IMG/VR virus record: IMGVR_UViG_3300028228_000176
Location: 637-64,636 of that record
Direction: 5' to 3' (one strand)
Length of the DNA: 64,000 bases
From: a virus
Taxonomy: Duplodnaviria > Caudoviricetes
Every line of letters begins with the position of its first letter. The stretch's first letter is position 1. Under the pieces are notes generated by a model. It ran no database searches. It was not told the DNA's origin and saw only the letters and a list, made by a program, of their open reading frames with translations. Shown here piece after piece: positions 26,026 through 58,580 of the stretch. A program made the position numbers and the translations under genes.

Positions 26026-26962
26026 TTATTGATTAAAGATTATCCCTTTAAATATATGCTCAATTACATCTACTGTCCAGCCGTTTCCAAGCATTTTATA
26101 ACGTTGGCTATTGCTTACGTGGTTTGTGTAATTGTCTGGCACAGTTTGCAACCTCTCGCATTCAATAGGCGATAATTTTCTAAATCCATTTATAAAAACT
26201 GCGTAATTATCTTTTTGAACAGTTGTGATAGTGTTTGTTTTGCCATCGTATCTAATTTCTATTCTTTGTTTTGTTAAGCCTTTAGTTTTCATTTTTCCGT
26301 CTTGTCTTTTGCCAGCAACAATATAACGCCCACGCATTGCACCGCAAAAAACCAATTGCCTTCTACTTTTTTAAAGTATTGGTTAAGGTTTCCTCCTTTC
26401 GCATAATTAGCATCTATGCAATAAGACTTATTTCGGTCAACAATGCCGTTTTCAATAATATCTGCTAAATAAATTTCTTTATTTTTGGTGGTATTACGCT
26501 TGGTATGTTAGTCCAATAAAGCCTAACTCTATTTTGAGCAGAAACCAAAGAACTATTTATAATTACAGGTTCGCAACCTAAATAACTGCTAATAACATCT
26601 TGGTATTCCTTTTTCATTTTTACATTCTCCATAAGGAAATACTTTGGTTTCAATTCGTTTTTAAGCCTAACAAACTCAAAAAACAATTTACTTCTTTCAT
26701 CTTGGAAGTTCAGTTGTTTCCCTGCAAAACTAAACCCTTGACATGGGCTACCCCCAATTAGCAAATCAATTTCGTGGTTAAGCATTCCCTTGTTTACAAA
26801 CTCAACGCTTCCTAATTGTATAGTATTTGGATAGTTTTCCATAGTTACCTTTATTGCGTATTTATCTATCTCGCTTGCAAAATACTTATCTACTTTAATC
26901 CCTAATTTATCTAGGGCAATTTGTCCGCAACTCATTCCATCGAATAAACTTAATACATTCAT
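26026..26962 (-). CDS. C5-cytosine DNA methyltransferase (frameshifted; ORFs 26465-26962 and 26026-26355)
   Basis: Motifs LSLFDGMSCG, GGSPCQGFS, ENV, QNRVR and C-terminal YKMLGNGW. Confidence 0.85.
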
Positions 26963-27374: not shown

Positions 27375-30143
27375 TTATTTAACTTCACAAGAGCCACCTC
27401 CTCCACAAGCAATCTCTCCTGCTAAATTAGTATCGTCATCCACCTCTATTATGTTAATCAAATCAACATCAACTAAATGCTTCATTCTTTCGTGATAGTC
27501 AGCTTCCGAGATGTCCTCAAATGGGGCTTGGATATAAGTTCCTCCATCATAAGGAAGTACAGACAACCCATTGTAATGGTTTCTGTTAGCCCACATCCAC
27601 TCGCCTGCTCTATCCCATTCGTCTGCTTTCAAAGAAACAGTGGCTGAAACATTATGTGTATTAGAACCTTTCCTATGTCCTGGAACCACCCACTCTTGAG
27701 CAACTTTTTTAATTCTTTCTAACAAATCAAAAGGAGACTCATCTCTCAAGATAGAACCTTTAGGCGCTTTTTGAGGTATACTAATTACAGCCGTATCGTG
27801 TGGTCTGAAATATTCGTCTTCGACTAACTCTGGATGATTTTTACTCAAGTACTGGTACATTGATTCATTCTTCCCTACACGTATTCTACGGATGTAATAA
27901 TCGTTATGCCAAGCGTGAATACCAGAAGAAGTTCCAAGAGCAAGAGAGGTCGTCCCAGCAGGCTTTACTGTTGTTGTTCTAGCCGCTGCATTAATGCCGA
28001 TTAATTTTGCAACTCTAGAGTTCTCTTTGTTCACAACCTCGGCTGCTTCTGTCATATCGTAATTAAGGACTGCTCCAGAACCAATCCCAGTCATTGATAC
28101 ACCAATTAAAGCGTCTTTCTCAGTAGTTTCTCTCCATATGCTTCTTAGGTAATGGAACTCTGTATATCCCGCTTGTAATGTACCTATGAATGCAGCGTGT
28201 TTAACTCTGTTATTTAGGTCTTCTTGAGACTCAATGTTAGATGCGTTTACTTCGCATAGGTTACAAAACTGAAAAGGTCTTAAAGCAATTTCGCAGTTAT
28301 GAACAAGAACTCCGCTAGAGTTAAGATAGTTGTCGTCGTCTGTCTTAGTTAGTATATAAAAGTTTTCGTTATCTTCAACGGTGAGGTCATAAACATCTTC
28401 TTTTTCTCCAGTGTAAACTAATTCCGTAACATAAACAGCTTCTGATAAATCAACGTTTATATCTTCTTTAGCATACGAGTCGTATTCTTCTTTGTGTTTG
28501 CGGTTCCAATCAATTAGAGTTTTTTCTATTTTGTCGGTACTCCAACCCCATCTTTTCCCGTTTGCCGCTATACTATTCCTAGACCCTATCAATTGACGGT
28601 GTCTCTTGTTTAGTTTGTGAACTGGATTTCCCATCCCATTCATATTCAATGCCCTCTTTTTTAAGTTGTCCTTCGCTAGTATCAACTCAAGATTTTCTAG
28701 TTTATCATTTGTTGAGTCTTCGTCAATATGGTCTATGTTTCTGCTGTTGTTATAACTTCCATTGTGAAACTCCCACATCATTCTATACTGCTTAGAATAG
28801 CCATTGGATTTAGAGTTTATATGTCGGTATGACTTTTTATTATTCTTGTTGCTAAAAGAAAAGAATTTCTCCAGCTCCAATCCTACAGAATCTTTTGCTT
28901 CAACCCAACCTCCTGAAGGTAATGCTAACCTATGGTCGTCAGTACACTTAAACTTTGATCCATCCGAAAGACAAACCTCAACAGTTTCTTTGTAACCATT
29001 GTGATAAGCAACCGCTTGTTTTATCTCTGACTTCCAACCTTGGAATTTATTGTCATAAACAAATATTTTATTCGTATATTTTTCTCTTGCTGAATAAACA
29101 GGAAACGACTCCTTCCCTTGAGACTCTTCCGCCAACTGAGCTATTGTAACTCCGTTTCTTCCATCAGCAGTAGCGACTATTGTATCTCCTGAAAAACAAC
29201 AAGGATTTGTTCCCCAATCTTTGTCGTTGTTAAAATAAATTCCTGGCTCCCCAGCATTGCTAAGTTCAACACGTTTCCATAAATTCATAAAGAACTCTTC
29301 AGTAACTTTGTGTCTCATTAATACAGCAGAGTTGTTTGCTCTACCTCTTTGCGGATTTGATTCCCACCAACTGCCAGACTTACAACTAATCATATCATCA
29401 TCATCAGCAGAAAACAAAGCAATTAATGCAGCTCTTCTTATGCCTCCAGCTAAGACTGCATCGGCAATATGACAAACAATATCGTGAGTTTCTACGGTAG
29501 TTAAATTCTCTCCATCTTTTTTAGAGTCAAGAACTGCTGTGATATTGAACACGCATTCTTTTAATGGCTGAGGGCCTGGAGCTTTGCCGCCTGACGTAAC
29601 TAGCTGTGCACCCTTTGGTCTAATGTCTGAGTAATCAAAGTCAACTTTAGAGTTTCTTTTGTCACCCATATAAGACTTCATTAATACTTTTATGGCATCG
29701 GCCCAGCCTTCAATTGAATCTCCAATTAAAAACCTTTTAGTTCTTTTAGAATGAGGTTTGCTTATAGAAGGTAGTTGGCTAACGTGATGATTTTGCACTG
29801 AGTACCCTACTCCAGTTCCACCAAGAAGTAGAAACATAATCTCATTGAAGGAATCGACACTATCAATAGGTAGGTATGCGCAATTATAAACTCTGTTAGG
29901 AGATATCTCTATCGACTTACCTCCAAATTGTAACGACCTCATTGAAGGTAGAATTTTTTTGTCGTATACTAACTCGTAAGCTTCGTCAATTTGTTTTTCT
30001 AATTTTGGGTACTTCTTAACGTGCATTGCTTTGTTGCGGTCAACAAGTTCTGACCACGTTTCTCTTCTGTTTAACTCTGGCACAAATTTAGCATATTTCA
30101 TGTATACTGTAATATCTGACAGGATTTTATTTGATTTCTCCAT
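27375..30143 (-). CDS. nrdJ: Class II (adenosylcobalamin-dependent) ribonucleotide reductase containing an intein
   Basis: Motifs PSMRSLQFGG, NPC/CEI, TTVKPAGT and C-terminal ACGGGGSCE. No beta subunit gene is present. Confidence 0.85.
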   Translation of the reverse strand: MEKSNKILSDITVYMKYAKFVPELNRRETWSELVDRNKAMHVKKYPKLEKQIDEAYELVYDKKILPSMRSLQFGGKSIEISPNRVYNCAYLPIDSVDSFNEIMFLLLGGTGVGYSVQNHHVSQLPSISKPHSKRTKRFLIGDSIEGWADAIKVLMKSYMGDKRNSKVDFDYSDIRPKGAQLVTSGGKAPGPQPLKECVFNITAVLDSKKDGENLTTVETHDIVCHIADAVLAGGIRRAALIALFSADDDDMISCKSGSWWESNPQRGRANNSAVLMRHKVTEEFFMNLWKRVELSNAGEPGIYFNNDKDWGTNPCCFSGDTIVATADGRNGVTIAQLAEESQGKESFPVYSAREKYTNKIFVYDNKFQGWKSEIKQAVAYHNGYKETVEVCLSDGSKFKCTDDHRLALPSGGWVEAKDSVGLELEKFFSFSNKNNKKSYRHINSKSNGYSKQYRMMWEFHNGSYNNSRNIDHIDEDSTNDKLENLELILAKDNLKKRALNMNGMGNPVHKLNKRHRQLIGSRNSIAANGKRWGWSTDKIEKTLIDWNRKHKEEYDSYAKEDINVDLSEAVYVTELVYTGEKEDVYDLTVEDNENFYILTKTDDDNYLNSSGVLVHNCEIALRPFQFCNLCEVNASNIESQEDLNNRVKHAAFIGTLQAGYTEFHYLRSIWRETTEKDALIGVSMTGIGSGAVLNYDMTEAAEVVNKENSRVAKLIGINAAARTTTVKPAGTTSLALGTSSGIHAWHNDYYIRRIRVGKNESMYQYLSKNHPELVEDEYFRPHDTAVISIPQKAPKGSILRDESPFDLLERIKKVAQEWVVPGHRKGSNTHNVSATVSLKADEWDRAGEWMWANRNHYNGLSVLPYDGGTYIQAPFEDISEADYHERMKHLVDVDLINIIEVDDDTNLAGEIACGGGGSCEVK
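28296..29198 (-). mobile_element. Intein (301 aa) with an HNH homing endonuclease
   Basis: Begins CFSGDT after GTNPC, has CTDDHR (block B) and IDHIDEDSTNDKLENL (HNH), and ends VYDLTVED...VLVHN before Cys. Confidence 0.9.
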
Positions 30144-36374: not shown

Positions 36375-37106
36375 CTATAATGTACGGTTTATAAAAAATT
36401 GTTTAGAATTAAAACCTTCTGTCTTGTAAAACATATCGTATATCTCTGTTGCCTTCTTGACTTTATCTGCGCCTCTATCGTAGAACTCCTCTGAGCAGTC
36501 GAATAAGCCTATCTGCTGCGTTCCTTTATCTATAACTACGAATAGCATATCGTATCCAAACATCTTGCGGTATATGTAAGCTTGACTGTCGTAATTATAT
36601 TTCTTAGCAGAAAAGTTAAAACCGTTTATATCGGATGTTGTTTTCAAGTCAACTATAAGTTTCTTGTCGTGATTGATAATATCCGCTTTACCCTTCCACA
36701 TATTACCCTCAAGTCCAACTATATTTGGAACCTCGTATTCTACGTTACCTCCATTAATCAAGTCGCTGCAAGTGTCGTTTTCCAATAGAGTCTTTACGAG
36801 GTCATCAACTTTATCTGCTTCGTGTTTAAGCAAGCACATTTCTTCTCCCGACTCTTCTCGGTAAATTTTAGTGTTACGAGTTGAGGCATCCACCACCTTG
36901 AAGTTTTTTAACTTTTCTGGCTCCAGTATTGCTGTATGAAAGTAACCACCTACAATCATTGCTGAGGTTGGCTCTGTCTTTTCTTTTAGCATCAAAGGAT
37001 TGCTGAATAGCGTACCTATATTTGAATTGCTTAGGTATTGTTGACCAAACTCTCCATAGTAGTCTTCATCAATTTTTAATCTCTCTAGTATTTCTTTCTT
37101 GTCCAT
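36375..37106 (-). CDS. PD-(D/E)xK exonuclease (RecE/DUF3799-like)
   Basis: Motifs FHTAILEP, KGKAD, VDLKTT and YDSQAYIY. Confidence 0.8.
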   Translation of the reverse strand: MDKKEILERLKIDEDYYGEFGQQYLSNSNIGTLFSNPLMLKEKTEPTSAMIVGGYFHTAILEPEKLKNFKVVDASTRNTKIYREESGEEMCLLKHEADKVDDLVKTLLENDTCSDLINGGNVEYEVPNIVGLEGNMWKGKADIINHDKKLIVDLKTTSDINGFNFSAKKYNYDSQAYIYRKMFGYDMLFVVIDKGTQQIGLFDCSEEFYDRGADKVKKATEIYDMFYKTEGFNSKQFFINRTL

Positions 37107-37109
37107 ATC

Positions 37110-37649
37110 TTAAAGTGTTGTTAATTTAGTTTCTACGTCTTTCGTTAAGGTATACTTTCCTTTGATGTCATCAATACTACCACCTTTTTTAATATACTCT
37201 TTAGCTTTGTTGAAGCTATCGCTATCTGACACTAAGGCTTTCTTAGGGGTTGATTTGTCGTGGGTGTTACTTGCGTCGCTGTCTGCTGTGTCGTCTATTA
37301 AAAATAGATTCCCAAGAGCATACTTCTTACCGTAACTTGAAGAGGAACCAAACTTCTGTGGCATCTGCATACCCTTTTGCTCAAGGTCAACGCCAACTAT
37401 ACTATTTGCGTGTATAGCATTCTCTCCATCTGAGATAGTGGCAGTCATTTCCATAATAGGGAATGGCTCTGTACTTAATAGCTTCTCTTTCACTGTAACT
37501 GTTACTCCTAATTCAATGAGGAAAGGCTTGGTAGCTTCTAGGATATCTTCTGCACTACGGAAGTAGTACTTACCGAAGGCGTTGAACCTACTCTTTTTTG
37601 ATTTGAATTGTGTCTGGATTATTGCCAGCTTGTCGTTAATTGTTTTCAT
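37110..37649 (-). CDS. ERF-family single-strand annealing protein
   Basis: Motifs FGKYYFRSAEDIL and GSSSSYGKKYALGNLFLIDD. Confidence 0.85.
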   Translation of the reverse strand: MKTINDKLAIIQTQFKSKKSRFNAFGKYYFRSAEDILEATKPFLIELGVTVTVKEKLLSTEPFPIMEMTATISDGENAIHANSIVGVDLEQKGMQMPQKFGSSSSYGKKYALGNLFLIDDTADSDASNTHDKSTPKKALVSDSDSFNKAKEYIKKGGSIDDIKGKYTLTKDVETKLTTL

Positions 37650-37717: not shown

Positions 37718-37775
37718 TGGTTCAATTTTTTGAATGTTTCTTATAACATTGTTAGGTTTAATATTTTAAAAAAGC
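37718..37775 (+). other. attI-like recombination site, copy 1 (apparently empty)
   Basis: TGGTTCAATTTTTTGAATGTTTCTTATAAC-att-GTTAGGT; the 30 bp are identical to 41983-42012. Confidence 0.65.
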
Positions 37776-37796: not shown

Positions 37797-38766
37797 TCAT
37801 TCTCCACAATCTGAAAAAACTTCACAACTCTCTGTTTCGTCAAAAAGAGATTCTTGAAAATTAGTATCAATACTATCGTCTTTAACTATTTTATCAAACC
37901 CTTTACTCATTTCAATCATTTCTTTTACACTTACAAAGTTCCTAAAAAACACATTTTTATATTCTTCTGTTGGTACTTTTTCCATTTCATATCCTGTAAT
38001 AGTTTCTCCAAATTCATCTTTATATTCGTAATAAACTTTTTCAGGAACTCTACCATTAGGATTTCCGTATTTATTTTCAAGGTAATCTAAAAATTCAAAA
38101 TAATTAATATCATCTTTTACCATTTGCATCAACTTATTGTTACTCTTCTTATAACAAGCACCACAATTACCCTGATACCCTTTTAAAATCAATCTAAATT
38201 TTTGTTGATCCCAACCTAAAAATTTATATGCTTTTTTTGTCATTGGTTGCATATTTTTTTGAATTAAAGGGTAAACTAATCTTAATTCGTCTTTTTTTAG
38301 CGTTCATCCTATCTATTTCGTCAATTCTAATACCTAATGCTAAATAATATTTTTCCTTACCCCAAATACTTTTTGCATAGTTTTTAATAGGATTCATTTT
38401 TAATTCCCTTGTACAATGTAAACGAGAATGATTTGGTATTCCATACTTCTTTACAACTTCTTCAAAAGGTGTATCTGTTGTATTTTTCCAATCTGTATTT
38501 CTTGTAGCAGAATTATAATCAACTATTTTAAAACCTGTACTTTTTCTTTGATTATGGTAAACTTTGGCTTCAATCCATTTAATGTCCAACCCAAATTCTT
38601 TTTCGCATTTATGTACAAACTCTAAAGTTTCGTTACTTTCAACACCTGTGTTAGCAAAAACAAAAAGCATCTCATATTCGTTTTGCATTTTTTTATTTAA
38701 CCAATTCCCCATAAAAGCAGAAGTTTCTCCTCCGCTAAATGTAACTAATAATTTTTTCTTACTCAT
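37797..38766 (-). CDS. PAPS-reductase-family (PP-loop) protein, frameshifted into two ORFs
   Basis: Motifs FSGGETS, FANTG, CTRELK, LGIRIDE and GNCGAC. Confidence 0.75.
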
Positions 38767-41076: not shown

Positions 41077-41730
41077 TTATTTTCTTATTGATACATAAGC
41101 TGCATCTATTAAATTCATTAGTGAACTCTTAAAAGCTATTGACGAAGACTTACCTCCAATACTCCATACATTCAACTCGCTAATAGTATACTCCCTATCG
41201 TAAGTTTTCCAATCGTATATCGTGTAGTAATAATCCCCAAATCTTACAATCCATTCAACGCTACTCTTCTCTCCTTCCTCAAACGTCTGCGTGGGCTGTC
41301 CTAGCGCCTCTACTAACTCAAAATACTTAACACCTCTTAGTGTATCAACCTTGCTGCTACCCTTCCACATATCGCTTGTAATTTCGTCCTGTAATATAGT
41401 CTTTATATTGAAAATATAATTATTGATATTACATAGCTCAGGGTTCGTTTCTACAATGGTTTCAATATCGTGTCTCATCTCTCTATCTGTCTCACACAAG
41501 TCTTTCATTTTTGAAATGTTATTTATCACTGAAGAATGGTTCCTACTAAGGTAAACACCCATCATTTTTAATGTTGACCTTGTGTATGTTCTTGCTAAGG
41601 TACAAAACATTTGCCTGGCTGTAACTAATTCTCTACTTCTGTTTGGCGATAGTACTTCGTTTTTATTAAGACCGTAGTATTTACATACTATTGTCATTAT
41701 GCTGTCTAATGATTCTAATTCTCTACTCAT
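41077..41730 (-). CDS. Protein with a DnaA C-terminal HTH-like domain fused to an unknown domain
   Basis: SRELVTARQMFCTLAR...LSRNHSSVI resembles DnaA domain IV. Confidence 0.65.
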   Translation of the reverse strand: MSRELESLDSIMTIVCKYYGLNKNEVLSPNRSRELVTARQMFCTLARTYTRSTLKMMGVYLSRNHSSVINNISKMKDLCETDREMRHDIETIVETNPELCNINNYIFNIKTILQDEITSDMWKGSSKVDTLRGVKYFELVEALGQPTQTFEEGEKSSVEWIVRFGDYYYTIYDWKTYDREYTISELNVWSIGGKSSSIAFKSSLMNLIDAAYVSIRK

Positions 41731-41745
41731 AATTTTGTTTTTATT

Positions 41746-41982
41746 TTAAAAAGGTAATTTGTTTTTCGTGTATCCATCATAATGAATCTTTATCCCGCAG
41801 AATAGGAAGTGATGCCTATTGTTTTTAGCTCCATTGAAAGATATAGAATGATGCTTTGCATATTTAGATGTTGTTTTTAATTCTAATTCTTGTTCAATTA
41901 AATGAACTAAGTTTTCTAATTCTCTAGGTGTTGGTTTGTGGTTACAAATGTCTATAATCACCGCCTTTATTGATTCTGTCAT
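41746..41982 (-). CDS. Hypothetical protein
   Basis: 78 aa; its ATG abuts the attI-like site. Confidence 0.45.
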   Translation of the reverse strand: MTESIKAVIIDICNHKPTPRELENLVHLIEQELELKTTSKYAKHHSISFNGAKNNRHHFLFCGIKIHYDGYTKNKLPF

Positions 41983-42022
41983 TGGTTCAATTTTTTGAAT
42001 GTTTCTTATAACGTTGTTACAG
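41983..42022 (+). other. attI-like site, copy 2, heading the seven-cassette array
   Basis: 30-bp motif followed by gtt and the core GTTACAG (predicted crossover G^TT at 42016/42017). Confidence 0.7.
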
Positions 42023-42028
42023 GCAATA

Positions 42029-42931
42029 CTACATTAGTCCTCCGAAAATGTGAGCAATTACATTTACAGTCCATCCATTGCCGAGCATCTTATACCTATC
42101 TGTATTTGATACTCCTTCTGTATATTTATCAGGTACGGTTTGTAATCTCTCACATTCAACAACTGTAAGTCTATGTATATTTTCATCTCTGTCTTTTGTG
42201 AAAGTAGATTTTTGTCCTTTGTGCATATTTGAAGTTAAGCAACTTGCTTTTCCATCAGCATACCACAACTGTTCTAATCTTGTTTTATTTCCAAATTTAC
42301 CAAGCAACCAGTTTGGGTAATTATTATGAAACATAGGTGTTTGTAAAATATCATATACTACTGTTTTATTCTCTTTTGGTAATTCATTTAAAGGAATATT
42401 AGTCCAATAAATTCTCGGTCTGTTGTGTGCTGAAAATAGATTTGAGTTTATTCGTATTGGCTCAACTCCCAACGCTTCTGTAATAATATCTTCCCACTCT
42501 TTTTTCATTACTACATTTTCAAGTAAAAAGTATCTTGGTTTTACTTCATTCAGAACTCTTACAAATTCCCAAAACAAACCACTTTTACCATCAAATCCTT
42601 TCCCATTTCCAAAAGAACTAAAACTTTGGCAAGGACTACCACCGAAAAGCAAATCTATTTTTGGCAAATCACTACCTTTTAATTCCGTAACGTTTCCAAT
42701 TTGTTTTGTGTTTGGAAAGTTTTTTTGTGTTATAAAAATTGCTTTCTCATCAATCTCCGAAGCAAAGTAGTTATTCACCTTTAACCCTGCTTTCTGCAAA
42801 GCTAATTGTCCACAACTCATCCCATCAAAAAGGGATAGTGCGTTAATCCCGTACTGCCTGTAACACGTGCTATAATCAATAGCGGATTCTGTACTATCCG
42901 AAAGTTTCTGCTGTTTATTATCTTTTGTCAT
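42029..42931 (-). CDS. Cassette 1: C5-cytosine DNA methyltransferase (probable start MTKDNK, inside the attC)
   Basis: Motifs LSLFDGMSCG, GGSPCQ, ENV and YKMLGNGW. Confidence 0.85.
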   Translation of the reverse strand: MTKDNKQQKLSDSTESAIDYSTCYRQYGINALSLFDGMSCGQLALQKAGLKVNNYFASEIDEKAIFITQKNFPNTKQIGNVTELKGSDLPKIDLLFGGSPCQSFSSFGNGKGFDGKSGLFWEFVRVLNEVKPRYFLLENVVMKKEWEDIITEALGVEPIRINSNLFSAHNRPRIYWTNIPLNELPKENKTVVYDILQTPMFHNNYPNWLLGKFGNKTRLEQLWYADGKASCLTSNMHKGQKSTFTKDRDENIHRLTVVECERLQTVPDKYTEGVSNTDRYKMLGNGWTVNVIAHIFGGLM

Positions 42932-42986
42932 AAATTTAAAGTTTTGTGTTATTAATCCGCTACTACTCATAGCACCATCGTTAGCG
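42858..42986 (+). repeat. attC-like site 1
   Basis: CTGTAAC-ac-GTGCTAT..TAGCGGATT ... AATCCGCTA..ATAGCAC-catc-GTTAGCG. Confidence 0.8.
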
Positions 42987-43316
42987 GTTATTAAGGTAGT
43001 CCCATAATTTACCACTATCAGAAAAATCAATATTCTTTCCTTTATCTGTAATCATTCCATCTTTATATTTTACTCCAAAATCCAATTCAAAACAAAAATA
43101 TTCAATCCAACTTTGACCGTGTTCGCAAAGTTCTAAGTCATTATTCTCAACTTGTAAAACTTTCATCAAAGCGTTATTTATAAGATGATTTTCGGGTAAT
43201 AAATTTGCTTCAAAAGCATTTGTAAATACTTCCGATAATTTTTTAGCAAATTCATTATCATATTCATATTGTTTTCTTAATGCTTCAATGCTTTCAATAA
43301 ATAATTCTCGTGTCAT
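42981..43316 (-). CDS. Cassette 2: hypothetical protein
   Basis: 111 aa; the TAA stop lies within the core GTTA. Confidence 0.7.
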   Translation of the reverse strand: MTRELFIESIEALRKQYEYDNEFAKKLSEVFTNAFEANLLPENHLINNALMKVLQVENNDLELCEHGQSWIEYFCFELDFGVKYKDGMITDKGKNIDFSDSGKLWDYLNNR

Positions 43317-43334
43317 AATTTTTAATTAAACAAC

Positions 43335-43430
43335 CGCTAACACACGGTATAGTTAAAAAGCCTATTAAAATTTGTATTTGAATTGCAAGGTAGTGGTTAG
43401 GCTTTCAAACCATACCGCAATTCGTTAGGT
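43335..43430 (+). repeat. attC-like site 2
   Basis: CGCTAAC-aca-CGGTAT..AAAGCCTA ... TAGGCTTT..ATACCG-caattc-GTTAGGT. Confidence 0.8.
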
Positions 43431-43985
43431 GTAATATTCACTAAGGCAAATGCTATTATCAACCTCATTGCCAAAAACCGCCCAGCCTTTTCGATCACGT
43501 CTTGCAAACATTTCCAGTCGGGGTTCTTCGCTTACCGTTTCAATTAAGTCTTGGAAAAATTCAGGCTTTTTGCTATGTCGTTTTTGCCTTTTGTGTTCCC
43601 ACCAAGTACTATCTATCCTTTTTACTTTCGGCATCTTACCACGCCTTGCAAGTATCAAAAACTCGGTCGTAGGGCAGTAAACCCCTCCTTGCCCTGTACC
43701 CATAGGTTTTTTGCACCAAGTTAATGTTTGGCAATACTTCAACCCCCACGCACTTAATACGGCAAAAGCATCAGGTAAATATTTTTGAGTAGTCCATAAG
43801 TAAACCTCACAGTTACCATCACAAAGGCTTTTTACTGGTAGTGCCTTTATATCTTCTACCGTCATCCATTCGTAAGGTAGTGGTGCAGGTTTATTTGCTT
43901 CTCCTTGCACCAAAGCCTTTTTACTTCCGCTACCCCAAATGCCGTATTTCCAAGGCGGGTCTATTACTATCGTTTTATATTTCAT
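43425..43985 (-). CDS. Cassette 3: MT-A70-family adenine methyltransferase
   Basis: Motifs IDPPW, YLWTT, HSKKP and LEMFAR..GW..FGNE. Confidence 0.85.
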   Translation of the reverse strand: MKYKTIVIDPPWKYGIWGSGSKKALVQGEANKPAPLPYEWMTVEDIKALPVKSLCDGNCEVYLWTTQKYLPDAFAVLSAWGLKYCQTLTWCKKPMGTGQGGVYCPTTEFLILARRGKMPKVKRIDSTWWEHKRQKRHSKKPEFFQDLIETVSEEPRLEMFARRDRKGWAVFGNEVDNSICLSEYYT

Positions 43986-44014
43986 CTTTCGTTATTTTAA
44001 TCCGTTCATACTAC

Positions 44015-44069
44015 ACCTAACACTGTATAAAAGCCATAGAAAAAACGGCTCATATACTAAACGTTAGTA
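44015..44069 (+). repeat. attC-like site 3
   Basis: ACCTAAC-act-GTATAaaAGCC..GGCTcaTATAC-taaac-GTTAGTA. Confidence 0.8.
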
Positions 44070-44817
44070 ACAATTATTTTTTTGCCCCACTCTTGCGTGA
44101 CCAATCTCTACGGCTTTTTCTGATATGTCGCAACCTATAAAATTTCTATTTAAGTCTTTGCAAACTTCTGCCGTTGTAAAAGAGCCACCGTAAAAATCAG
44201 CTACTAAATCACCTTTATTACTACTTGCTTTTATTATTCGTTCAAGTAGTGTTTTTGGCTTTTGTGTTGCGTATCCTGTATAGTCTTTGTGTTGTGAACT
44301 TAACATAGGTTTTAAATCATCCCACCAATCAATAGGTAAAGATTTGTCGTAATTATAAGTAACTCCGTTTAATACTTTTTATAAGAACCTCCGTTTTTGT
44401 TATCAATATAAAGCTCATCTAAATTAAATTTATACTCTTTAGTTTTAGAGTACCAAAATATATTGTCGTGCTTATTGCTAATACTTTTTTGCTTTTACCT
44501 CCGCTTCTGTAACACCAAATTATTTCATTCAAAATCTATCATAACCAAATACATCATCCAAAATACACCTTACCCAGTGGCTTATCTTTGTGTCCATTTG
44601 TAAATATATACTTCCAGTATCTTTTAAAATACGGTGCATTTCTTTTATTCTTGGTATGTAGTGTTCTTCTATTATTTCTCGTTTAGGTTTTAAAATCTTG
44701 GTAGTCTTTGAATTTTCTACCTGTTCCATAAAGTATATCGCAGTAAATTAAATCTACTGTACTATCTTTTATTTCTGCCATTAACTCTAAATTATCACTT
44801 AATCTTATATCAATCAT
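44064..44817 (-). CDS. Cassette 4: beta-class N6A/N4C DNA methyltransferase (frameshifted)
   Basis: Motifs VDLIYCDILY, LKDTGSIY, YATQKP and VADFYGGSFTT; the stop lies in the core GTTA. Confidence 0.75.
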
Positions 44818-44876
44818 CTTTATAAATATTTTAATTCGTACCTCATTAATTTGCCAACGCTCTGAAAAATAACAGT

Positions 44877-44932
44877 AACTAACAATGTATAAAAGCCATA
44901 GAAAAAACGGCTCTTATACCCAACCGTTAGCC
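44877..44932 (+). repeat. attC-like site 4 (interior nearly identical to site 3)
   Basis: AACTAAC-aat-GTATAAAAGCCATAGAAAAAACGGCTCTTATAC-ccaacc-GTTAGCC. Confidence 0.8.
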
Positions 44933-45571
44933 ACAAGCTGCTACATTATCGCTTTTAATGAAGTTTCCCCATTGTTCAGCCATAGCTTTTGCAATTCCGC
45001 TAAAAGTTTTACTGCTTTCCTTTTGGCTTATGTTCTTAAATTGATATTTCTGCCCTCGTTTTTTGCCCCCTGTATTACTTGGTAAGTACGGCTTATATTC
45101 GCTTACTATTTTGGTTGGGCTTAATAGTGGTAAATTTTTAATCCACAGCAGAGTTCTTTTACTATAAGGGTGTCCGTATTCATAAGGTTGCACCGCTTGG
45201 CTTTGTTTAGGCAATCCAACTACTTTTAACGATGTTGGGTTCTCAACAGCAATATAAGGTATAGGAGCGTTCAATAATTTCATAAACAAATCCTTCGCTT
45301 CCATTGCTTTATTAAATCTTTCTTGGCTTAAATTTCCTGCTGTTGGGTACATCCATCTTGCACCAGCTCTACTAATATAAGTGCAAGGTGGGTGCGCTAT
45401 CATAAGGTCATATTTACCACTATACGCTTCTACAACTGCATCACCTACAATATGCCATTCAGGTTTACCACGACTACATTCTTGCATATCGCAACTATAA
45501 GCCTCAAATCCTATTTCTCGGAAAGCCTTACAAACTTCTTGGCTCTCCTCACAAGCTATTAATATTTTCAT
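44927..45571 (-). CDS. Cassette 5: short cytosine-methyltransferase-like protein
   Basis: Motifs ILIACEES, AHPPCT, VENP, KRTLLW and GIAKAMAEQW; the stop lies in the core GTTA. Confidence 0.7.
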   Translation of the reverse strand: MKILIACEESQEVCKAFREIGFEAYSCDMQECSRGKPEWHIVGDAVVEAYSGKYDLMIAHPPCTYISRAGARWMYPTAGNLSQERFNKAMEAKDLFMKLLNAPIPYIAVENPTSLKVVGLPKQSQAVQPYEYGHPYSKRTLLWIKNLPLLSPTKIVSEYKPYLPSNTGGKKRGQKYQFKNISQKESSKTFSGIAKAMAEQWGNFIKSDNVAACG

Positions 45572-45609
45572 TCTATTTAATTTTAGTTCTTAATTTACCA
45601 CAGCCAGAT

Positions 45610-45672
45610 GGCTAACACGGTATATAAAACAGCTTCCTATCGTCAGCCGATTTCATATACAAACCGTTAGGC
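45610..45672 (+). repeat. attC-like site 5
   Basis: GGCTAAC-acg-GTATATAAAA ... TTTCATATAC-aaacc-GTTAGGC. Confidence 0.8.
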
Positions 45673-45712
45673 ACAATATTTTATTAATTTTTGCCAACGC
45701 TCTTTTGGTTTT

Positions 45713-46513
45713 TCAAACCAATTGTGGTATTTGCTCTCGTAAGAATAAATAAACCTCTTCCTGTGTTATATAAGGTGTAGAAATCACATTGCTTCTATCC
45801 CCGTAATAATCTTCAAATTTATCATTGAATATTTGTTTTATTGTTGGGATTAAAGTTTTATCTTCAATTACTATCTTATAGTTTCTTAATGTTTGTTTTT
45901 CATTAAGCACCTTCCACACCTTGCTCCCCATCCTGCATATCCTAAAATCTTCTTGCAATGGTAAATATTTTTTACTCCTTTTATCATCCGCAACAACTAA
46001 AATGCTATTTAATTTAAACTGTTTTCTTTTATTTAGCTTGCCACTTACTGGTCTTTTGTAAATATTCAAACAGCATCGTAATTCCCTGTCAGTATATACT
46101 CTATTCCCCAAATCTTCACTATGTATTAAATCAAACTTAAATAAAGAGCGTGTTTTGTTTAGTAGTTTTATGCTCCCAATAAAAGCTATGTAATCTCCTT
46201 GCTCAACTGCTTTATTGTAAAAACTTCTGAATAAGTTGCCACTATCACCAAATGGGGGGTTTCCAATAACACACCTACCTTTAAAGTATGGCAAATCTAA
46301 TTCAAGGTAGTTCTTTTGTTCAATGTTTTCTGCTTCTGGTTCAATATCAAATGCAAGGTAGTTGTTATCTAAATATGGTAAAAACACTCCTGCTCCTGCA
46401 CTTGGTTCAAGCCATTCAGTTATGTTTTCAACTCCAATTACTTCTTTTGTTTTCTTTACACAATACTCTGCTAAATCAGAAGGTGTGTAGTATTTGTCTA
46501 AATTTATTTTCAT
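45713..46513 (-). CDS. Cassette 6: gamma-class N6-adenine DNA methyltransferase
   Basis: Motifs YYTP, LEPSAGAG and GNPPF. Confidence 0.8.
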   Translation of the reverse strand: MKINLDKYYTPSDLAEYCVKKTKEVIGVENITEWLEPSAGAGVFLPYLDNNYLAFDIEPEAENIEQKNYLELDLPYFKGRCVIGNPPFGDSGNLFRSFYNKAVEQGDYIAFIGSIKLLNKTRSLFKFDLIHSEDLGNRVYTDRELRCCLNIYKRPVSGKLNKRKQFKLNSILVVADDKRSKKYLPLQEDFRICRMGSKVWKVLNEKQTLRNYKIVIEDKTLIPTIKQIFNDKFEDYYGDRSNVISTPYITQEEVYLFLREQIPQLV

Positions 46514-46568
46514 ATTCTTATATTATTAAATTAAAAAAATCCCTCCCTAAAAATTAAAAAATACAGAT

Positions 46569-46632
46569 GCCTAACACTGTGTCATACGTAAGTTTGTGAA
46601 AAACAAACCAACGCATACACTTAACGTTATGC
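46569..46632 (+). repeat. attC-like site 6
   Basis: GCCTAAC-act-GTGT..CGT..GTTTG/CAAAC..ACG..ACAC-ttaac-GTTATGC. Confidence 0.75.
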
Positions 46633-46636
46633 ACCA

Positions 46637-46846
46637 TTAAAGTGCTTCGAACTCAATTTTGTGGTTAAATGAATCACCATTACCGCTTGCATGAATTGCC
46701 CATAAATTACCTTGTTTATCCATACCTTCGGCATAAGTTCCGTCAGTTAGTGTAATATCAAGTTCACAATATTCATGTAACCACTCTTGCATAGTCTGCT
46801 CATTATCGTTGTGAGCATATTCTGTATTCCAAATAAATGTTTCCAT
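46637..46846 (-). CDS. Cassette 7: hypothetical protein (probable start METFIW)
   Basis: Acidic 69-aa ORF between terminal inverted repeats that match at 14 of 15 bp. Confidence 0.65.
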   Translation of the reverse strand: METFIWNTEYAHNDNEQTMQEWLHEYCELDITLTDGTYAEGMDKQGNLWAIHASGNGDSFNHKIEFEAL

Positions 46847-46871
46847 AGTTAAATTAATTAAAATTAACGGT

Positions 46872-46938
46872 GCATAACAACACCTATAAATCATATTTTT
46901 CGTTCCTCAAAATCCGCTTCATAGCCAAACCGTTAGGT
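46872..46938 (+). repeat. attC-like site 7 (end of the array)
   Basis: GCATAAC-aacac-CTATAAA ... TTCATAG-ccaaacc-GTTAGGT. Confidence 0.7.
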
Positions 46939-46996
46939 GTAATATTAAAAAAGGCACTGTGCTGTGCCAAATAATACCTTGTTTTGTGTTTATTTA

Positions 46997-47308
46997 TTAA
47001 TATTTGTTTCCAAGTTGAACCATTGATTCATCCCTTCCATGTAAGCCCTTTCTTTTCTCTCCCGTATACATCAAGTCTCCATTGTGAACCAAGTTCGTTA
47101 AAGCTCTCCTAATGGATGTTATTGGTGTTTTTAGGAACGCATCAAGAGTTCCTAAGACAGACGCAGATGTAGTAAACATTTTCCCCTTTGTTGTTAAAGC
47201 CGATTGAGCGTAATTCATAGCTTCCATTATCACCTGCTTTTGAGTTAATGCTTTCTTTTTGTATTCCTTTAACTTTTCTCCGCTTTCGTTTGTTGTGTTA
47301 TAATACAT
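46997..47308 (-). CDS. Putative winged-helix DNA-binding protein
   Basis: PITSIRRALTNLV helix followed by a beta-wing. Confidence 0.5.
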   Translation of the reverse strand: MYYNTTNESGEKLKEYKKKALTQKQVIMEAMNYAQSALTTKGKMFTTSASVLGTLDAFLKTPITSIRRALTNLVHNGDLMYTGEKRKGLHGRDESMVQLGNKY

Positions 47309-47476
47309 AGTTATATATTTTTAATTTGTTTAATTGCTTCAGACCTTAATTCGTCTGCTGAAGTTTTACCGTTTAATTTTTCATAAGAGTGTATCCAATC
47401 CAGGACTTTAAAAACTTGGTCGTGACTTTCACAAATTCTTATCTTATTAACGATGTTGTTGTATTCTATTTGATTC

Positions 47477-47734
47477 CTACCTCTTCGCATTGTCTATGTT
47501 TTCGTTAATAACTTCCGTTAGTTCTTCGTAATTAACGCAAGACAAAAAAGACTTTGCGTACAATTCAACTAAATCAAAATCCTCAGTTTTGTTTTTAAAA
47601 AGAGATTCTCTAGTAATTTGCTGAATGTCGTTTGAATTTACTTTGTCTTTAAATTCTCGAAACCTTAGTATGTCAGTCCATACGCACCACGTTTCGTAAT
47701 TAAGGTGCTCGATGTTAGCTCTTACTTCTTCCAT
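47477..47734 (-). CDS. Hypothetical protein
   Basis: 85-aa ORF. Confidence 0.5.
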   Translation of the reverse strand: MEEVRANIEHLNYETWCVWTDILRFREFKDKVNSNDIQQITRESLFKNKTEDFDLVELYAKSFLSCVNYEELTEVINENIDNAKR

Positions 47735-47837: not shown

Positions 47838-48056
47838 TTAAACTCGGCAGCCTTTATTGGTTGTCGGGTTTTTTTGTGGTTTAATTTTTTGAATGTTTCT
47901 TATAACATTGTTGTATTCCATAATAATTTTTTTCGCCTTCAACACGTGCTCACTTAATACGTCTTGTATGTAGTTTTTTAAGTCTTTATTTGCTTTAACC
48001 GCTAATATCTTTAACGGTTGCACATCTTCTATTTTTATATCTATAAGTTTTTTCAT
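47838..48056 (-). CDS. Small ribbon-helix-helix-like protein that reads through attI-like copy 3
   Basis: MKKLIDI strand followed by LKILAVK..LKNYIQDVL helices. Confidence 0.45.
   Translation of the reverse strand: MKKLIDIKIEDVQPLKILAVKANKDLKNYIQDVLSEHVLKAKKIIMEYNNVIRNIQKIKPQKNPTTNKGCRV
47841..47876 (+). terminator. + strand terminator-like hairpin directly before attI-like copy 3
   Basis: aactcggcagcc/ggttgtcgggtt (G-U pairs form on the + RNA) followed by a T-tract. Confidence 0.5.
47877..47916 (+). other. attI-like site, copy 3
   Basis: 29/30 identity to the motif, followed by att-GTTGTAT. Confidence 0.6.
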
Positions 48057-52221: not shown

Positions 52222-52281
52222 CAATCCCTATATATCTAACACAATCCCTATATATCTAACACAACCCCTATATATCTGACG
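52222..52281. repeat. 20-bp tandem repeat, 3 copies (CAATCCCTATATATCTAACA), in the divergent non-coding region
   Basis: Read directly; the third copy is degenerate. Confidence 0.85.
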
Positions 52282-52467
52282 TAATCTGTAAATATATCAC
52301 ATAATCCATACATATATGGAAAGAGTTTCTATAAAGGCTACCCCATGTTGTTTTAGGGGGGTATCTTATGACGATGCTTAGTGTGTGGTGTTATGCATTA
52401 GGGGGTATAAATTTTTTATTAAAAATAAATAGTGGATAAATCAGTGTTATATGCCACTGCATTTCAA

Positions 52468-56784: not shown

Positions 56785-58323
56785 ATGTCTAACGGAATCG
56801 TTAAGAATCTAAACTTCGGAGACGAAGGTAAAAATAAAGTGTTTGAGGGTATCTCAAAGTTAACACAAGCCGTTAGTTCCACATTAGGAGCTAGCGGTAA
56901 GTGTGTAATGCTAGAGGACGGCTCAGGCAAACCATTAATTACAAAGGATGGTGTAACAGTGGCTAATGCAGTTATACTCTTAGACCCAGTAGAAAATATG
57001 GGTGCAACGCTGTTAAAAGAAGCGGCAAGGCAAACAGTTATTGAAGCAGGCGACGGAACAACAACAGCTACGGTATTAGCACACGCAATACTAGAAGAGG
57101 CTTTTAAAAACAAAAACTATAACTCAAGAGAGATTCGCAATGGTATAAATTCTGCCGTTGACAAAGTAGTTACATACTTAGAAAGTATCTCACATAGCGT
57201 CACTGGTTCTATGTTAACTGAAGTTGCTACAATATCATCTAACAATGACGTAGAGCTTGGAGCTTTAATTGCTAAGGCTTTTGAAGACGTTGGCGAGAAT
57301 GGTGTAGTTAGTATGGAAATATCTAACGACGAAGAAACATCAGTAGACATTGTAGATGGCGCTTCTATTGATAAGGGGTTAAAGAATGACCACTTTATTA
57401 ATAACAAAGAAAAAGGTACTTGCGAACTTAACAATCCACTTGTATTAATTGTAGAAAGCAAAATACCTAATGTAAGAAAAGTTCAAGGAATTTTAGAATA
57501 CGTTATTAAGAATAACAAAGAATTACTTATTATTGGAGAAGCAGATGAACAGTTAGTGACTGCTTTATCAATGAATGTAAATAAAGGTAACATCAAAGCC
57601 AATATTATTGATTCCCCAGACTTTGGAATTAATAGGAAAGAAACGCTTCAAGATTTTGCTGCCTTAACTGGCGCTACAGTGATTAACGAAGACTTGGGTG
57701 ACGATATAGACCTAATTGATGTTAGCCACTTAGGTACGTGCTTAAAAGCCGTTACAACAAGAGAAGATACTGTCATTCAAGTTGAAGGCACTAACGATGC
57801 TGTTGTTGGTTTAATTAAGCAAATAAAAAAGCAGATTAAAGAAACAAAGATTAACGGAAAGAAGCACCAATTAGAAAGAAGGCTATCAAGGCTTGCTGGA
57901 AAGGTTGGTGTAATAAAAGTTGGGGCTAATTCAGAGGTTGAACTCAAAGAAAAAAGCGATAGAGTTGAAGATGCAATATGTGCAACTAAAGCAGCTATAA
58001 AAGAAGGTATTGTTCCAGGAGGAGGAATTGCTTTACTCAACGCTAGTACGATTGTTTTAGGCTTAAATGCAGGTGAAGACATTTTGCTAAAAGCTATTCA
58101 GTCTCCATTCAATGTTATTATGAAAAATGCAGGGATGGAAGACTTTGAAAAACCAACCGAAGAAGGTGTAGGATATGATGTAGTAACAGGTAAAATGGTG
58201 GAGATGATTAAGTTTGGAATTATAGACCCACTACTCGTAACTAAAAGTGCTTTGAAGAATGCTGCATCTGTAGCCAATACTATTCTTGCAACTGATTGTG
58301 TAATTAATAATCTAAGAGCATGA
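56785..58323 (+). CDS. groEL: Chaperonin GroEL
   Basis: Motifs ITKDGVTVA, AGDGTTTATVLA, GIVPGGG and GIIDP. Confidence 0.95.
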   Translation: MSNGIVKNLNFGDEGKNKVFEGISKLTQAVSSTLGASGKCVMLEDGSGKPLITKDGVTVANAVILLDPVENMGATLLKEAARQTVIEAGDGTTTATVLAHAILEEAFKNKNYNSREIRNGINSAVDKVVTYLESISHSVTGSMLTEVATISSNNDVELGALIAKAFEDVGENGVVSMEISNDEETSVDIVDGASIDKGLKNDHFINNKEKGTCELNNPLVLIVESKIPNVRKVQGILEYVIKNNKELLIIGEADEQLVTALSMNVNKGNIKANIIDSPDFGINRKETLQDFAALTGATVINEDLGDDIDLIDVSHLGTCLKAVTTREDTVIQVEGTNDAVVGLIKQIKKQIKETKINGKKHQLERRLSRLAGKVGVIKVGANSEVELKEKSDRVEDAICATKAAIKEGIVPGGGIALLNASTIVLGLNAGEDILLKAIQSPFNVIMKNAGMEDFEKPTEEGVGYDVVTGKMVEMIKFGIIDPLLVTKSALKNAASVANTILATDCVINNLRA

Positions 58324-58580
58324 AAGCAGTAGGGAAATACATATTAATAGAGCCTGCGAAGGAGAAGGAGTTTTCTACCAAAGGTGGGTTAATTTTAGGT
58401 GAGAACCATAGAGAAGATATAAGGTACAGAGAAGCCACCGTAAAGACAATTGGTACTATGGTAGCTGGAGTTAAAGACGAAGATGTTATCTATTACGATA
58501 GACACGCAGGGTTTGATATGGAAGTAGACAAAGTGATATATAAGGTAATAAAAGAATCAGACGTTGTAGTTGTTTTATGA
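58320..58580 (+). CDS. groES: Co-chaperonin GroES
   Basis: TKGGLIL mobile loop; overlaps the groEL stop codon. Confidence 0.85.
   Translation: MKAVGKYILIEPAKEKEFSTKGGLILGENHREDIRYREATVKTIGTMVAGVKDEDVIYYDRHAGFDMEVDKVIYKVIKESDVVVVL

Follow-up and report, generated by a model that had tools for sequence, protein, structure and literature searches.

An integrase-less, integron-like array of DNA methyltransferase cassettes in a probable Bacteroidota phage

The virus record IMGVR_UViG_3300028228_000176 (Duplodnaviria; Caudoviricetes) is complete at 64,636 bp, with direct terminal repeats, and the window analyzed here, a stretch of 64,000 nt, is all but 636 bases of it. On its minus strand, from 42029 to 46940, the window holds seven small gene units (cassettes c1 to c7) punctuated by hairpins resembling the attC sites of integrons, and five of the seven encode DNA methyltransferases (MTases). 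We think it likely that this locus is an integrase-less cassette array of the integron type, serviced by a recombinase of the host and used as an anti-restriction toolkit. In such a system, one unit would comprise an attC-like hairpin, a short leader, one open reading frame (ORF) and a CTAAC box. Whole units would be gained or lost when a crossover, specific for structure or for site, takes place in the CTAAC box, the equivalent of the bottom-strand R' box of attC, and would enter at a short attI-like landing site that is present three times in the phage genome. The crossover enzyme would be supplied by the host, in the form of an Xer-like tyrosine recombinase that adjoins the same hairpins in Bacteroidota chromosomes, and would act on single-stranded DNA; both the identity of this enzyme and its substrate are what we infer, as are MTase activity and the resulting change in host range. 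The payoff would be a changeable set of DNA modifications that shields the phage genome from varied host restriction systems. No tyrosine recombinase domain (PF00589) was found in the whole 64.6-kb record.

The cassette array and its methyltransferases

Together with a landing site at its downstream end, the array occupies window positions 41984 to 46940 (minus strand). Hairpins were scored with a covariance model, R1, trained on five hairpins of the window, one of L002 (a 17-kb viral fragment 95 to 99.8% identical to the window) and one of Cellulophaga phage phi12:1. In order of position, cassettes and hairpins were:

42029-42931, minus strand: c1, C5 cytosine DNA MTase (PF00145, 1.7e-44; TIGR00675, 3.2e-41)
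42856-42988, minus strand: degenerate hairpin between c2 and c1 (R1 17.6 bits, E 0.066)
42981-43316, minus strand: c2, 111-aa protein (phrog_28377, a PHROG of unknown function, 1.7e-22)
43333-43432, minus strand: attC-like hairpin, 100 nt (R1 59.5 bits)
43425-43985, minus strand: c3, MT-A70 family methyltransferase (PF05063, 4.5e-22; phrog_359, 5e-43)
44013-44071, minus strand: attC-like hairpin (R1 69.2 bits)
44064-44817, minus strand: c4, N6_N4 (beta-class) DNA MTase (PF01555 on pieces)
44875-44934, minus strand: attC-like hairpin (R1 65.2 bits)
44927-45571, minus strand: c5, short C5-type DNA MTase (phrog_757, 2.3e-50)
45608-45674, minus strand: attC-like hairpin (R1 71.7 bits)
45713-46513, minus strand: c6, NPPF amino-methyltransferase with gamma-type motif order (motifs and predicted fold)
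46567-46634, minus strand: attC-like hairpin (R1 70.4 bits)
46637-46837, minus strand: c7, small ORF of 66 to 85 aa depending on the choice of start (no match)
46870-46940, minus strand: first, partly degenerate hairpin, at the upstream end of the array (R1 26.8 bits, E 3e-4)

On the gene strand, each hairpin comprised a CTAAC box, 5 to 8 unpaired nt, a GTATA/TATAC helix, a variable loop, about 3 nt and a GTTAG box, with an overall length of 51 to 100 nt, and the CTAAC box usually contained the stop codon of the preceding cassette ORF. With filters off, R1 found six window elements, each on the gene strand and each lying between 43.3 and 46.95 kb; five are the training copies and the sixth is the untrained element at 46870-46940, which is directly preceded by a terminator-like hairpin at 46953-46968. 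In the degenerate element at 42856-42988 the CTAAC box at the c2 stop was kept and the remainder was weak. The seven training copies (alignment A1) paired in 95.9% of cells, with compensatory change in six pairs. Among 27 distinct viral copies (alignment A2) 92.9% of cells paired, compensatory change was seen in 10 of 14 pairs and none of 500 shuffles equaled this, with the limit that A2 was fitted to R1 and its pairing counts are therefore biased toward structure. The hairpins carried the RYYYAAC and GTTRRRY boxes, second helix, spacers and variable loop by which attC sites are recognized. With six co-oriented R1 elements in 3.7 kb and no PF00589 domain in the record, the array belongs with the clusters of attC sites lacking an integron integrase (CALINs). 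No Rfam family was found in the whole window at the gathering threshold, nor in the array by E-value. Plain counts of CTAAC...GTTAG patterns were weakly above chance, and a naive hairpin scanner did no better than shuffled sequence (85 matches vs. 44 to 67) and was replaced by R1.

S-adenosylmethionine-dependent MTase folds with class-specific motifs were found for c1, c3, c4, c5 and c6. This bears out the initial, sequence-only reading of the locus, which had recognized DNA MTases of different families in five of the seven cassettes; the types found here are C5, MT-A70, N6_N4, short C5-like and NPPF amino-MTase. That reading had also noted the absence of a cognate restriction enzyme; accordingly, no restriction enzyme family was detected among the 88 ORF translations of the window that were scanned. 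For c1, an alternative TTG start at 43030 was judged unlikely. At the DNA level, c4 was about 75% identical to gp6 of Cellulophaga phage phi12:1 and 84 to 87% identical to the N6_N4 MTase gene of Polaribacter phage P12002L. No Pfam match was found for c5, and nothing was returned for it by a PDB sequence search; aligned with 34 homologues, its PPC and ENP motifs were invariant in all 35 sequences, and its predicted model (pLDDT 85) had M.HaeIII, M.HhaI, DNMT3, DNMT1 and DNMT2 as the best fold matches listed. Similarly, c6 had no Pfam match, only a weak match in the PDB sequence search and 2924 homologues that are unannotated. Its EPSAGxG and GNPPFG motifs were invariant among the aligned homologues, and its predicted model (pLDDT 88) matched the folds of M.TaqI, M.BseCI, CamA and a type I M subunit, along with RNA m2G enzymes including Trm11 and Trm14. 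Hence c6 is probably an N6-adenine DNA MTase, the DNA target being likely yet unproven because the fold also matches RNA methyltransferases. Neither c2 (searched in Pfam, NCBIfam and the protein atlas) nor c7 (searched in these and in PHROG) had further matches, and the suggestion that both are candidate anti-defense genes drew nothing in support from the PHROG and atlas searches.

A further MTase gene lies outside the array:

26026-26962, minus strand: sixth MTase, C5 type, in three frames (PF00145 on both pieces)

As had been proposed, it is a paralogue of c1 (59% identity over 165 aa), and no significant R1 hairpin match was found near it. Both this gene and c4 are frameshifted in the window. 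The c4 gene is split over at least three ORFs, with pieces matching intact homologues in frames 2, 3, 1 and 3. Contigs from four public runs (X1, X2, X4 and X7) were compared with window positions 41500 to 47500, and those of X2 and X4 differed from window c4 by five one-base indels (at 44076, 44375, 44479, 44530 and 44692) that explain each of its frame switches; c4 is intact in both. The sixth MTase requires frames 2, 1 and 0, i.e., two frame changes, with breaks at A/T runs. At least 14 one-base indels, the majority of them within A/T runs, separate the window from L002, the window being mostly one base short; such differences include 35893, 36284, 38217-38296, 41737 and 48694, and at 41737 contigs of X2, X4 and X7 agreed with L002, not with the window. 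A PAPS-reductase-like gene is likewise two ORFs in the window (37797-38252 and 38224-38766) and one 321-aa ORF in L002. Because one-base indels relative to L002, mainly in A/T runs, also occur elsewhere in the window, the frameshifts in c4 and the sixth MTase are probably homopolymer errors of sequencing or assembly. That c4 is a true pseudogene was rejected, since five homopolymer indels suffice to account for it and the other runs lack them.

Cassette turnover and landing sites

The sequence-only reading had described the cassettes as swappable, and near-identical phage DNA and public contigs do hold other sets of them, with joints at the hairpin boxes. Where the window has its 4.9-kb array, L002 has about 370 nt, in which one hairpin is accompanied by a small ExoX-like ORF and by the c6 tail, and which directly adjoin the downstream repeat. 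Two extra insertions are found elsewhere in L002, the first with a D12 MTase, a hairpin and an N6_N4 MTase, and the second with a hairpin and an N6_N4 MTase, located exactly at a landing site of the window that is empty (37.7 kb). L002 thus holds three other MTase cassettes outside the array position. Its second insert starts with the hairpin and ends with CCTAAC, so these six letters are duplicated. In L002 (5784-6107), the last ~120 nt of c6 are fused behind the small ExoX-like ORF, and in the window a remnant at 45676-45720, after the c6 stop and upstream of the hairpin at 45608-45674, resembles a c4-type leader plus tail; the c6-end remnant and the L002 fusion look like scars of earlier cassette rearrangements.

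The landing site is a 49-nt repeat, comprising a mini-palindrome (TAAC, 3 nt, GTTA) and a conserved tail of ~30 nt, of which the window has three copies:

41984-42031, minus strand: candidate attI-like landing site at the downstream end of the array (repeat family D3, one of three copies)
37719-37766, minus strand: second copy, empty in the window (49-nt repeat)
47878-47925, minus strand: third copy, inside the 3' part of a 72-aa ORF (49-nt repeat)

Contigs of the public runs contained joints 42015|45666 (X2 and X4), 42015|44926 (X7) and 44061|46931 (X2, X4 and X7), each sharing only 4 to 6 letters, and further contig joints delete or replace c4, c5 or c6. At least 56% of the array's sampled words were present in 20 runs of 18 studies. 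Contig depth was 60 to 88 on the array flanks vs. 8 to 25 inside, and by these contig means the array appears to be the minority form. Single units were also shared between phages. The c5 gene with its hairpin (758 nt, 45677-44921) recurs at 99.6% identity in L013, a locus of 6.6 kb within a 73.7-kb contig; the c5 unit is the sole match of this locus to the window, and four other loci held c5 at 87 to 92% identity. In all five loci (L013 to L017), similarity to the window ends no more than one base past the CTAAC box located at the stop of c5. Natural joints fall at CTAA|C on the gene strand, in the box equivalent to R' of attC.

These joints also bear on whether a site-specific enzyme is needed at all. 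In T4-type phages, promoter early stem-loop (PeSL) cassettes reportedly have short conserved stem-loops that flank small accessory genes in variable genome regions and mark indel boundaries between relatives; they are thought to act by homologous recombination and are said to carry an early promoter. By analogy, the hairpins here could be recombination hot spots or regulatory stem-loops with no site-specific recombinase, the boxes exchanging by homology or microhomology with the aid of a phage ERF protein and exonuclease and the hairpins acting mainly at the RNA level, in termination, processing or stabilization of MTase messages. We regard this as unlikely. The 4 to 6 letters shared at the window joints are short for annealing-type recombination, and the same box was used at every joint of L013 to L017. 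Moreover, promoter-like sites were not in excess (19 vs. 24.9 in shuffles, Bacteroidota promoter types lying outside the scan); one sigma-70-like match of that scan lies in the c4 leader.

To survey the cargo, viral_contigs was scanned with a hairpin pattern that ignored gene content, and 38 stretches were returned. Directly downstream of the element, 20 of 32 ORFs encoded a DNA MTase (19 by Pfam and one of the c5 type; some loci are duplicates), compared with 0 of 40 cassette ORFs in bacterial arrays; in viral contigs, MTases dominate such cassettes. Just upstream, an MTase or Mom gene was found in 4 of 25. MTases follow the element more often than they precede it, and the unit is consequently read as hairpin, leader and gene. 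In one viral contig (L200, 726-2401), hairpins of this family follow both a Mom-family DNA-modification gene and a 254-aa gene of unknown function, so the DNA-modification cargo is not limited to methyltransferases. Flavobacterium phage filifjonk9-1 (L094, 736-6936) has five annotated DNA MTases in ~6 kb and one weak R1 match (14 bits), so multi-MTase loci also occur in related phages without clear hairpins of the R1 family.

Two further explanations were weighed against these data. It is hardly credible that the seven-cassette order is an assembly chimera of metagenomic reads at repeated hairpins. Contigs break at nearly every hairpin (those of X2 and X4, for example, at 42935-42941, within the degenerate hairpin between c2 and c1), the window has homopolymer errors, and depth differs between array and flanks. 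However, two X1 contigs (3600 and 2715 nt) span 41500-44481 and 44834-47500 without differences, 815-nt contigs from X2 and X4 close the gap left between these two, a 2049-nt contig of X7 covers c1 to c3, and the array's words recur in the 20 runs noted above; with overlapping contigs of independent runs supporting the cassette order, a chimera is disfavored. Distinctly improbable, in our view, is that the array is real and mobile but its MTases are mainly not anti-restriction, serving instead in phage replication, packaging or expression, or being selfish and partly inactive cargo. The frameshifts in c4 and the sixth MTase and the minority status of the array would agree with this, although the frameshifts are probably sequencing errors. 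Five specificity classes in one array, with other sets in near-identical phages, fit diversifying selection by restriction systems over a housekeeping role, and protection by orphan phage MTases against restriction has been established elsewhere (reviewed in PMC9892861).

Hairpin arrays and an Xer-like recombinase in Bacteroidota

The same hairpin pattern was applied to genome_contigs, which holds one genome per species, and gave 89 stretches; of the 80 listed, all but about three were titled as Bacteroidota lineages. Several of these loci (among L095 to L174) hold arrays of co-oriented elements. In five genomes (G001 to G005, with regions L184 to L188; G003, L185 and L186 are Aquimarina), the best match to the integron-integrase model was a tyrosine recombinase of 375 to 485 aa. 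An R1 array was located downstream of its gene in all five genomes examined, the first element lying 0.6 to 2.3 kb from the stop codon, and the gene points toward the array. R1 elements numbered 11 in L186 and 10 in L185; whole-genome R1 runs scored 150 candidates per genome, and the counts they gave are not copy numbers. The recombinase scored below the integron-integrase cut-offs (TIGR02249, 175 vs. 265 bits; NF040815, 219.3 vs. 220). Its alignment with VchIntIA skips VchIntIA residues 179 to 243, which are the IntI-specific additional domain, and its residues 107 to 369 align with XerA (4a8e) in one stretch. Of 401 genomes sampled from the family to which G003 belongs, about 73 (counted by eye) have a close orthologue of the recombinase and 5 have a c5 homologue. 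A single-protein query of viral_contigs found no close orthologue (two loci at 41%), which is not evidence of absence. Read on the opposite strand, the landing-site repeat of the phage is identical over 14 bases to part of the spacer that directly follows the L185 recombinase gene, and this identity hints that the 49-nt repeat may be an attI-like site.

Bacterial and phage cassettes differed in cargo and in orientation. No DNA MTase was found among the 40 bacterial cassette ORFs; their cargo was typical integron fare, including GrpB, a beta-lactamase-fold protein, ArsR, SnoaL and UDG. In 54 of 65 bacterial elements the ORF lay on the opposite strand with its stop at the GTTAG side, the canonical integron layout, while for 27 of 35 viral elements a co-directional ORF came after the element, with a single case (1 of 35) of the bacterial layout. 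Phage cassettes thus lack the layout of a top-strand ORF followed by attC. If the R1 orientation corresponds to the attC bottom strand, then the bacterial arrays are classical, CTAA|C is the bottom-strand R' and the phage cassettes are inverted. Calling the locus a mirror image of bacterial integrons, as the sequence-only reading did, proved apt: Bacteroidota carry the same hairpins in integron-like arrays, and the genes are inverted in the phage. The interpretation offered by that reading was partly supported: it stood as to swapping and integron likeness, found no backing as to an anti-defense role of c2 and c7, and is kept as a proposal as to anti-restriction and host range.

Orientation cuts both ways for a PeSL-like role. 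Without exception, phage elements lay on the gene strand (6 of 6 for the window, 30 of 30 for viral loci), and because 21 of 27 copies keep a G-U pair, folding favors the sense strand. In bacteria, however, the elements were antisense to the genes (54 of 65) and hence are no message element there, and they sat beside a tyrosine recombinase gene in each of the five genomes examined.

A wider proposal, which we put forward tentatively and rate somewhat below an even chance, is that an integron of a second kind is common to Bacteroidota and their phages. Its enzyme would be Xer-like and without the IntI insertion, and its phage branch would be an inverted cassette pool, mostly of DNA-modification genes, loaded into scattered attI-like sites by the host enzyme during infection, amounting to a virus-side adaptive gene-capture system.

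Phage genome, known systems and biological meaning

Structural genes lie on the plus strand up to about 24.6 kb; the minus strand carries the early and replication genes, between about 51 and 25 kb. One gene of the structural block (13006-14721) bears a crAss-type muzzle C-terminal domain. The nearest named phages are those of Cellulophaga, Polaribacter and Flavobacterium, with the likeness confined to methyltransferase genes; the virus is probably a virulent phage of marine or salt-lake Bacteroidota. A ribonucleotide-reductase-like gene of 922 aa (27375-30143) contains an intein with an HNH endonuclease, and a chaperonin pair, GroEL-like (512 aa) and GroES-like (86 aa), is encoded at 56785-58580. 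Four tandem 20-nt repeats at 52222-52321, where the gene blocks switch from minus to plus strand, may be replication-origin iterons; L002 lacks one of the four. A tRNA scan of the window found none. An origin from IS200/IS605-type elements or transposons was rejected, as no transposase or HUH family was found among the scanned ORFs. The phage does have a recombination pair of its own:

36375-37649, minus strand: PDDEXK exonuclease (DUF3799) and ERF single-strand annealing protein (PF12684, 3e-23; PF04404, 2.8e-27)

Several observations weigh against an integron-type array serviced by the host, and a number of them are equally points for the PeSL-like alternative. The longer unpaired spacer lies on the 5' arm of the folded strand; in classical attC sites the extrahelical bases are on the opposite arm. 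One L002 insertion is flanked by a 13-nt direct repeat and not by a box joint, and in L015 the hairpin was exchanged with the GTTAG box and leader retained; both would suit homologous exchange, for which the ERF and exonuclease pair would be at hand. Joints and depths derive from contigs, with depth as contig means, rather than from raw reads. The bacterial recombinase lacks the IntI-specific domain and falls short of the IntI cut-offs, and it is adjacency alone that connects it with the hairpins. The product of c6 could, in principle, target RNA. Finally, the sole member of the R1 family that has been bench-tested, P12002L_attC1, was inactive with IntI1, which the PeSL-like alternative also predicts; of the six sites tried with IntI1 in Escherichia coli by Qi et al. 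(2023; PMC9892861), it was the only one that gave no verified recombinants. The failure fits a need for a different enzyme.

The same paper (Front Microbiol 14:1091391) describes 17 integrase-less attC clusters in phages, among them a cluster with two MTases in the virulent Polaribacter phage P12002L, for which an anti-restriction benefit was proposed. There, HattCI by itself called attC1, and attC2 was called by both HattCI and INFERNAL. In our analysis P12002L carries three R1 elements, attC1 corresponding, by its primer sequence, to the R1 match at 3911-3969 of L093, while attC2, which recombined according to that paper, lies outside the R1 family. The idea of anti-restriction cassettes is therefore not new, having been proposed for this related Polaribacter phage (PMC9892861). 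Like the P12002L cluster, the window array has integrase-less, co-oriented hairpins between small genes, MTase cargo and, probably, a virulent Flavobacteriia phage as its setting. Unlike that report, the window array has seven units with five MTase types, its lineage shows cassette turnover with mapped joints and three landing sites, and its genes are inverted relative to bacterial cassettes. What is new is the size and variety of the array, turnover with joints within one lineage, the landing sites, the inverted genes and the tie to an Xer-type recombinase without the IntI domain. Our literature search, which left subscription journals mostly outside its reach, found no account of inverted phage cassettes or of Xer-type Bacteroidota arrays, Qi et al. 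(2023) alone being relevant.

Shared with bacterial integrons, some chromosomal arrays of which carry cassettes for defense against phages, are the RYYYAAC and GTTRRRY boxes, second helix, variable loop and single-gene cassettes, crossover at the R'-equivalent box, a landing site at one end of the array, and, in the host phylum, arrays adjoining a tyrosine recombinase gene. Unlike bacterial integrons, the associated recombinase aligns end to end with the XerA type and lacks the additional domain of IntI, its gene is directed toward the array, the phage itself has no integrase, the phage ORF is on the folded strand, and spacer asymmetry is on the other arm from the classical layout. PeSL cassettes differ in that the window joints share 4 to 6 letters, no promoter was shown here and the motif family is tied to a host recombinase. 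As with orphan phage MTases, there is no partner restriction enzyme, and multi-MTase loci are annotated in Flavobacterium and Cellulophaga phages; unlike them, each MTase of the array is a separately mobile unit with its own hairpin. As to how common integrons are in the host phylum, the IntegronFinder 2.0 paper reports almost no complete integrons in Bacteroidetes, and two reviews name Bacteroidetes among the phyla with integrons. Standard integron finders may miss the system described here, because its recombinase lacks the hallmark domain and the tested hairpin was not called by the INFERNAL step of the screen by Qi et al. (2023).

If the proposed reading is true, lytic phages keep MTases in a plug-and-play array that goes beyond chance mosaicism, with content turning over within one lineage. 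This would provide a concrete mechanism for fast tuning of host range against restriction systems. It would also explain why the sole tested site of the R1 family failed with IntI1. With the recombinase in about 73 of the 401 genomes sampled from one family, these data point to a widespread integron-like system in Bacteroidota.

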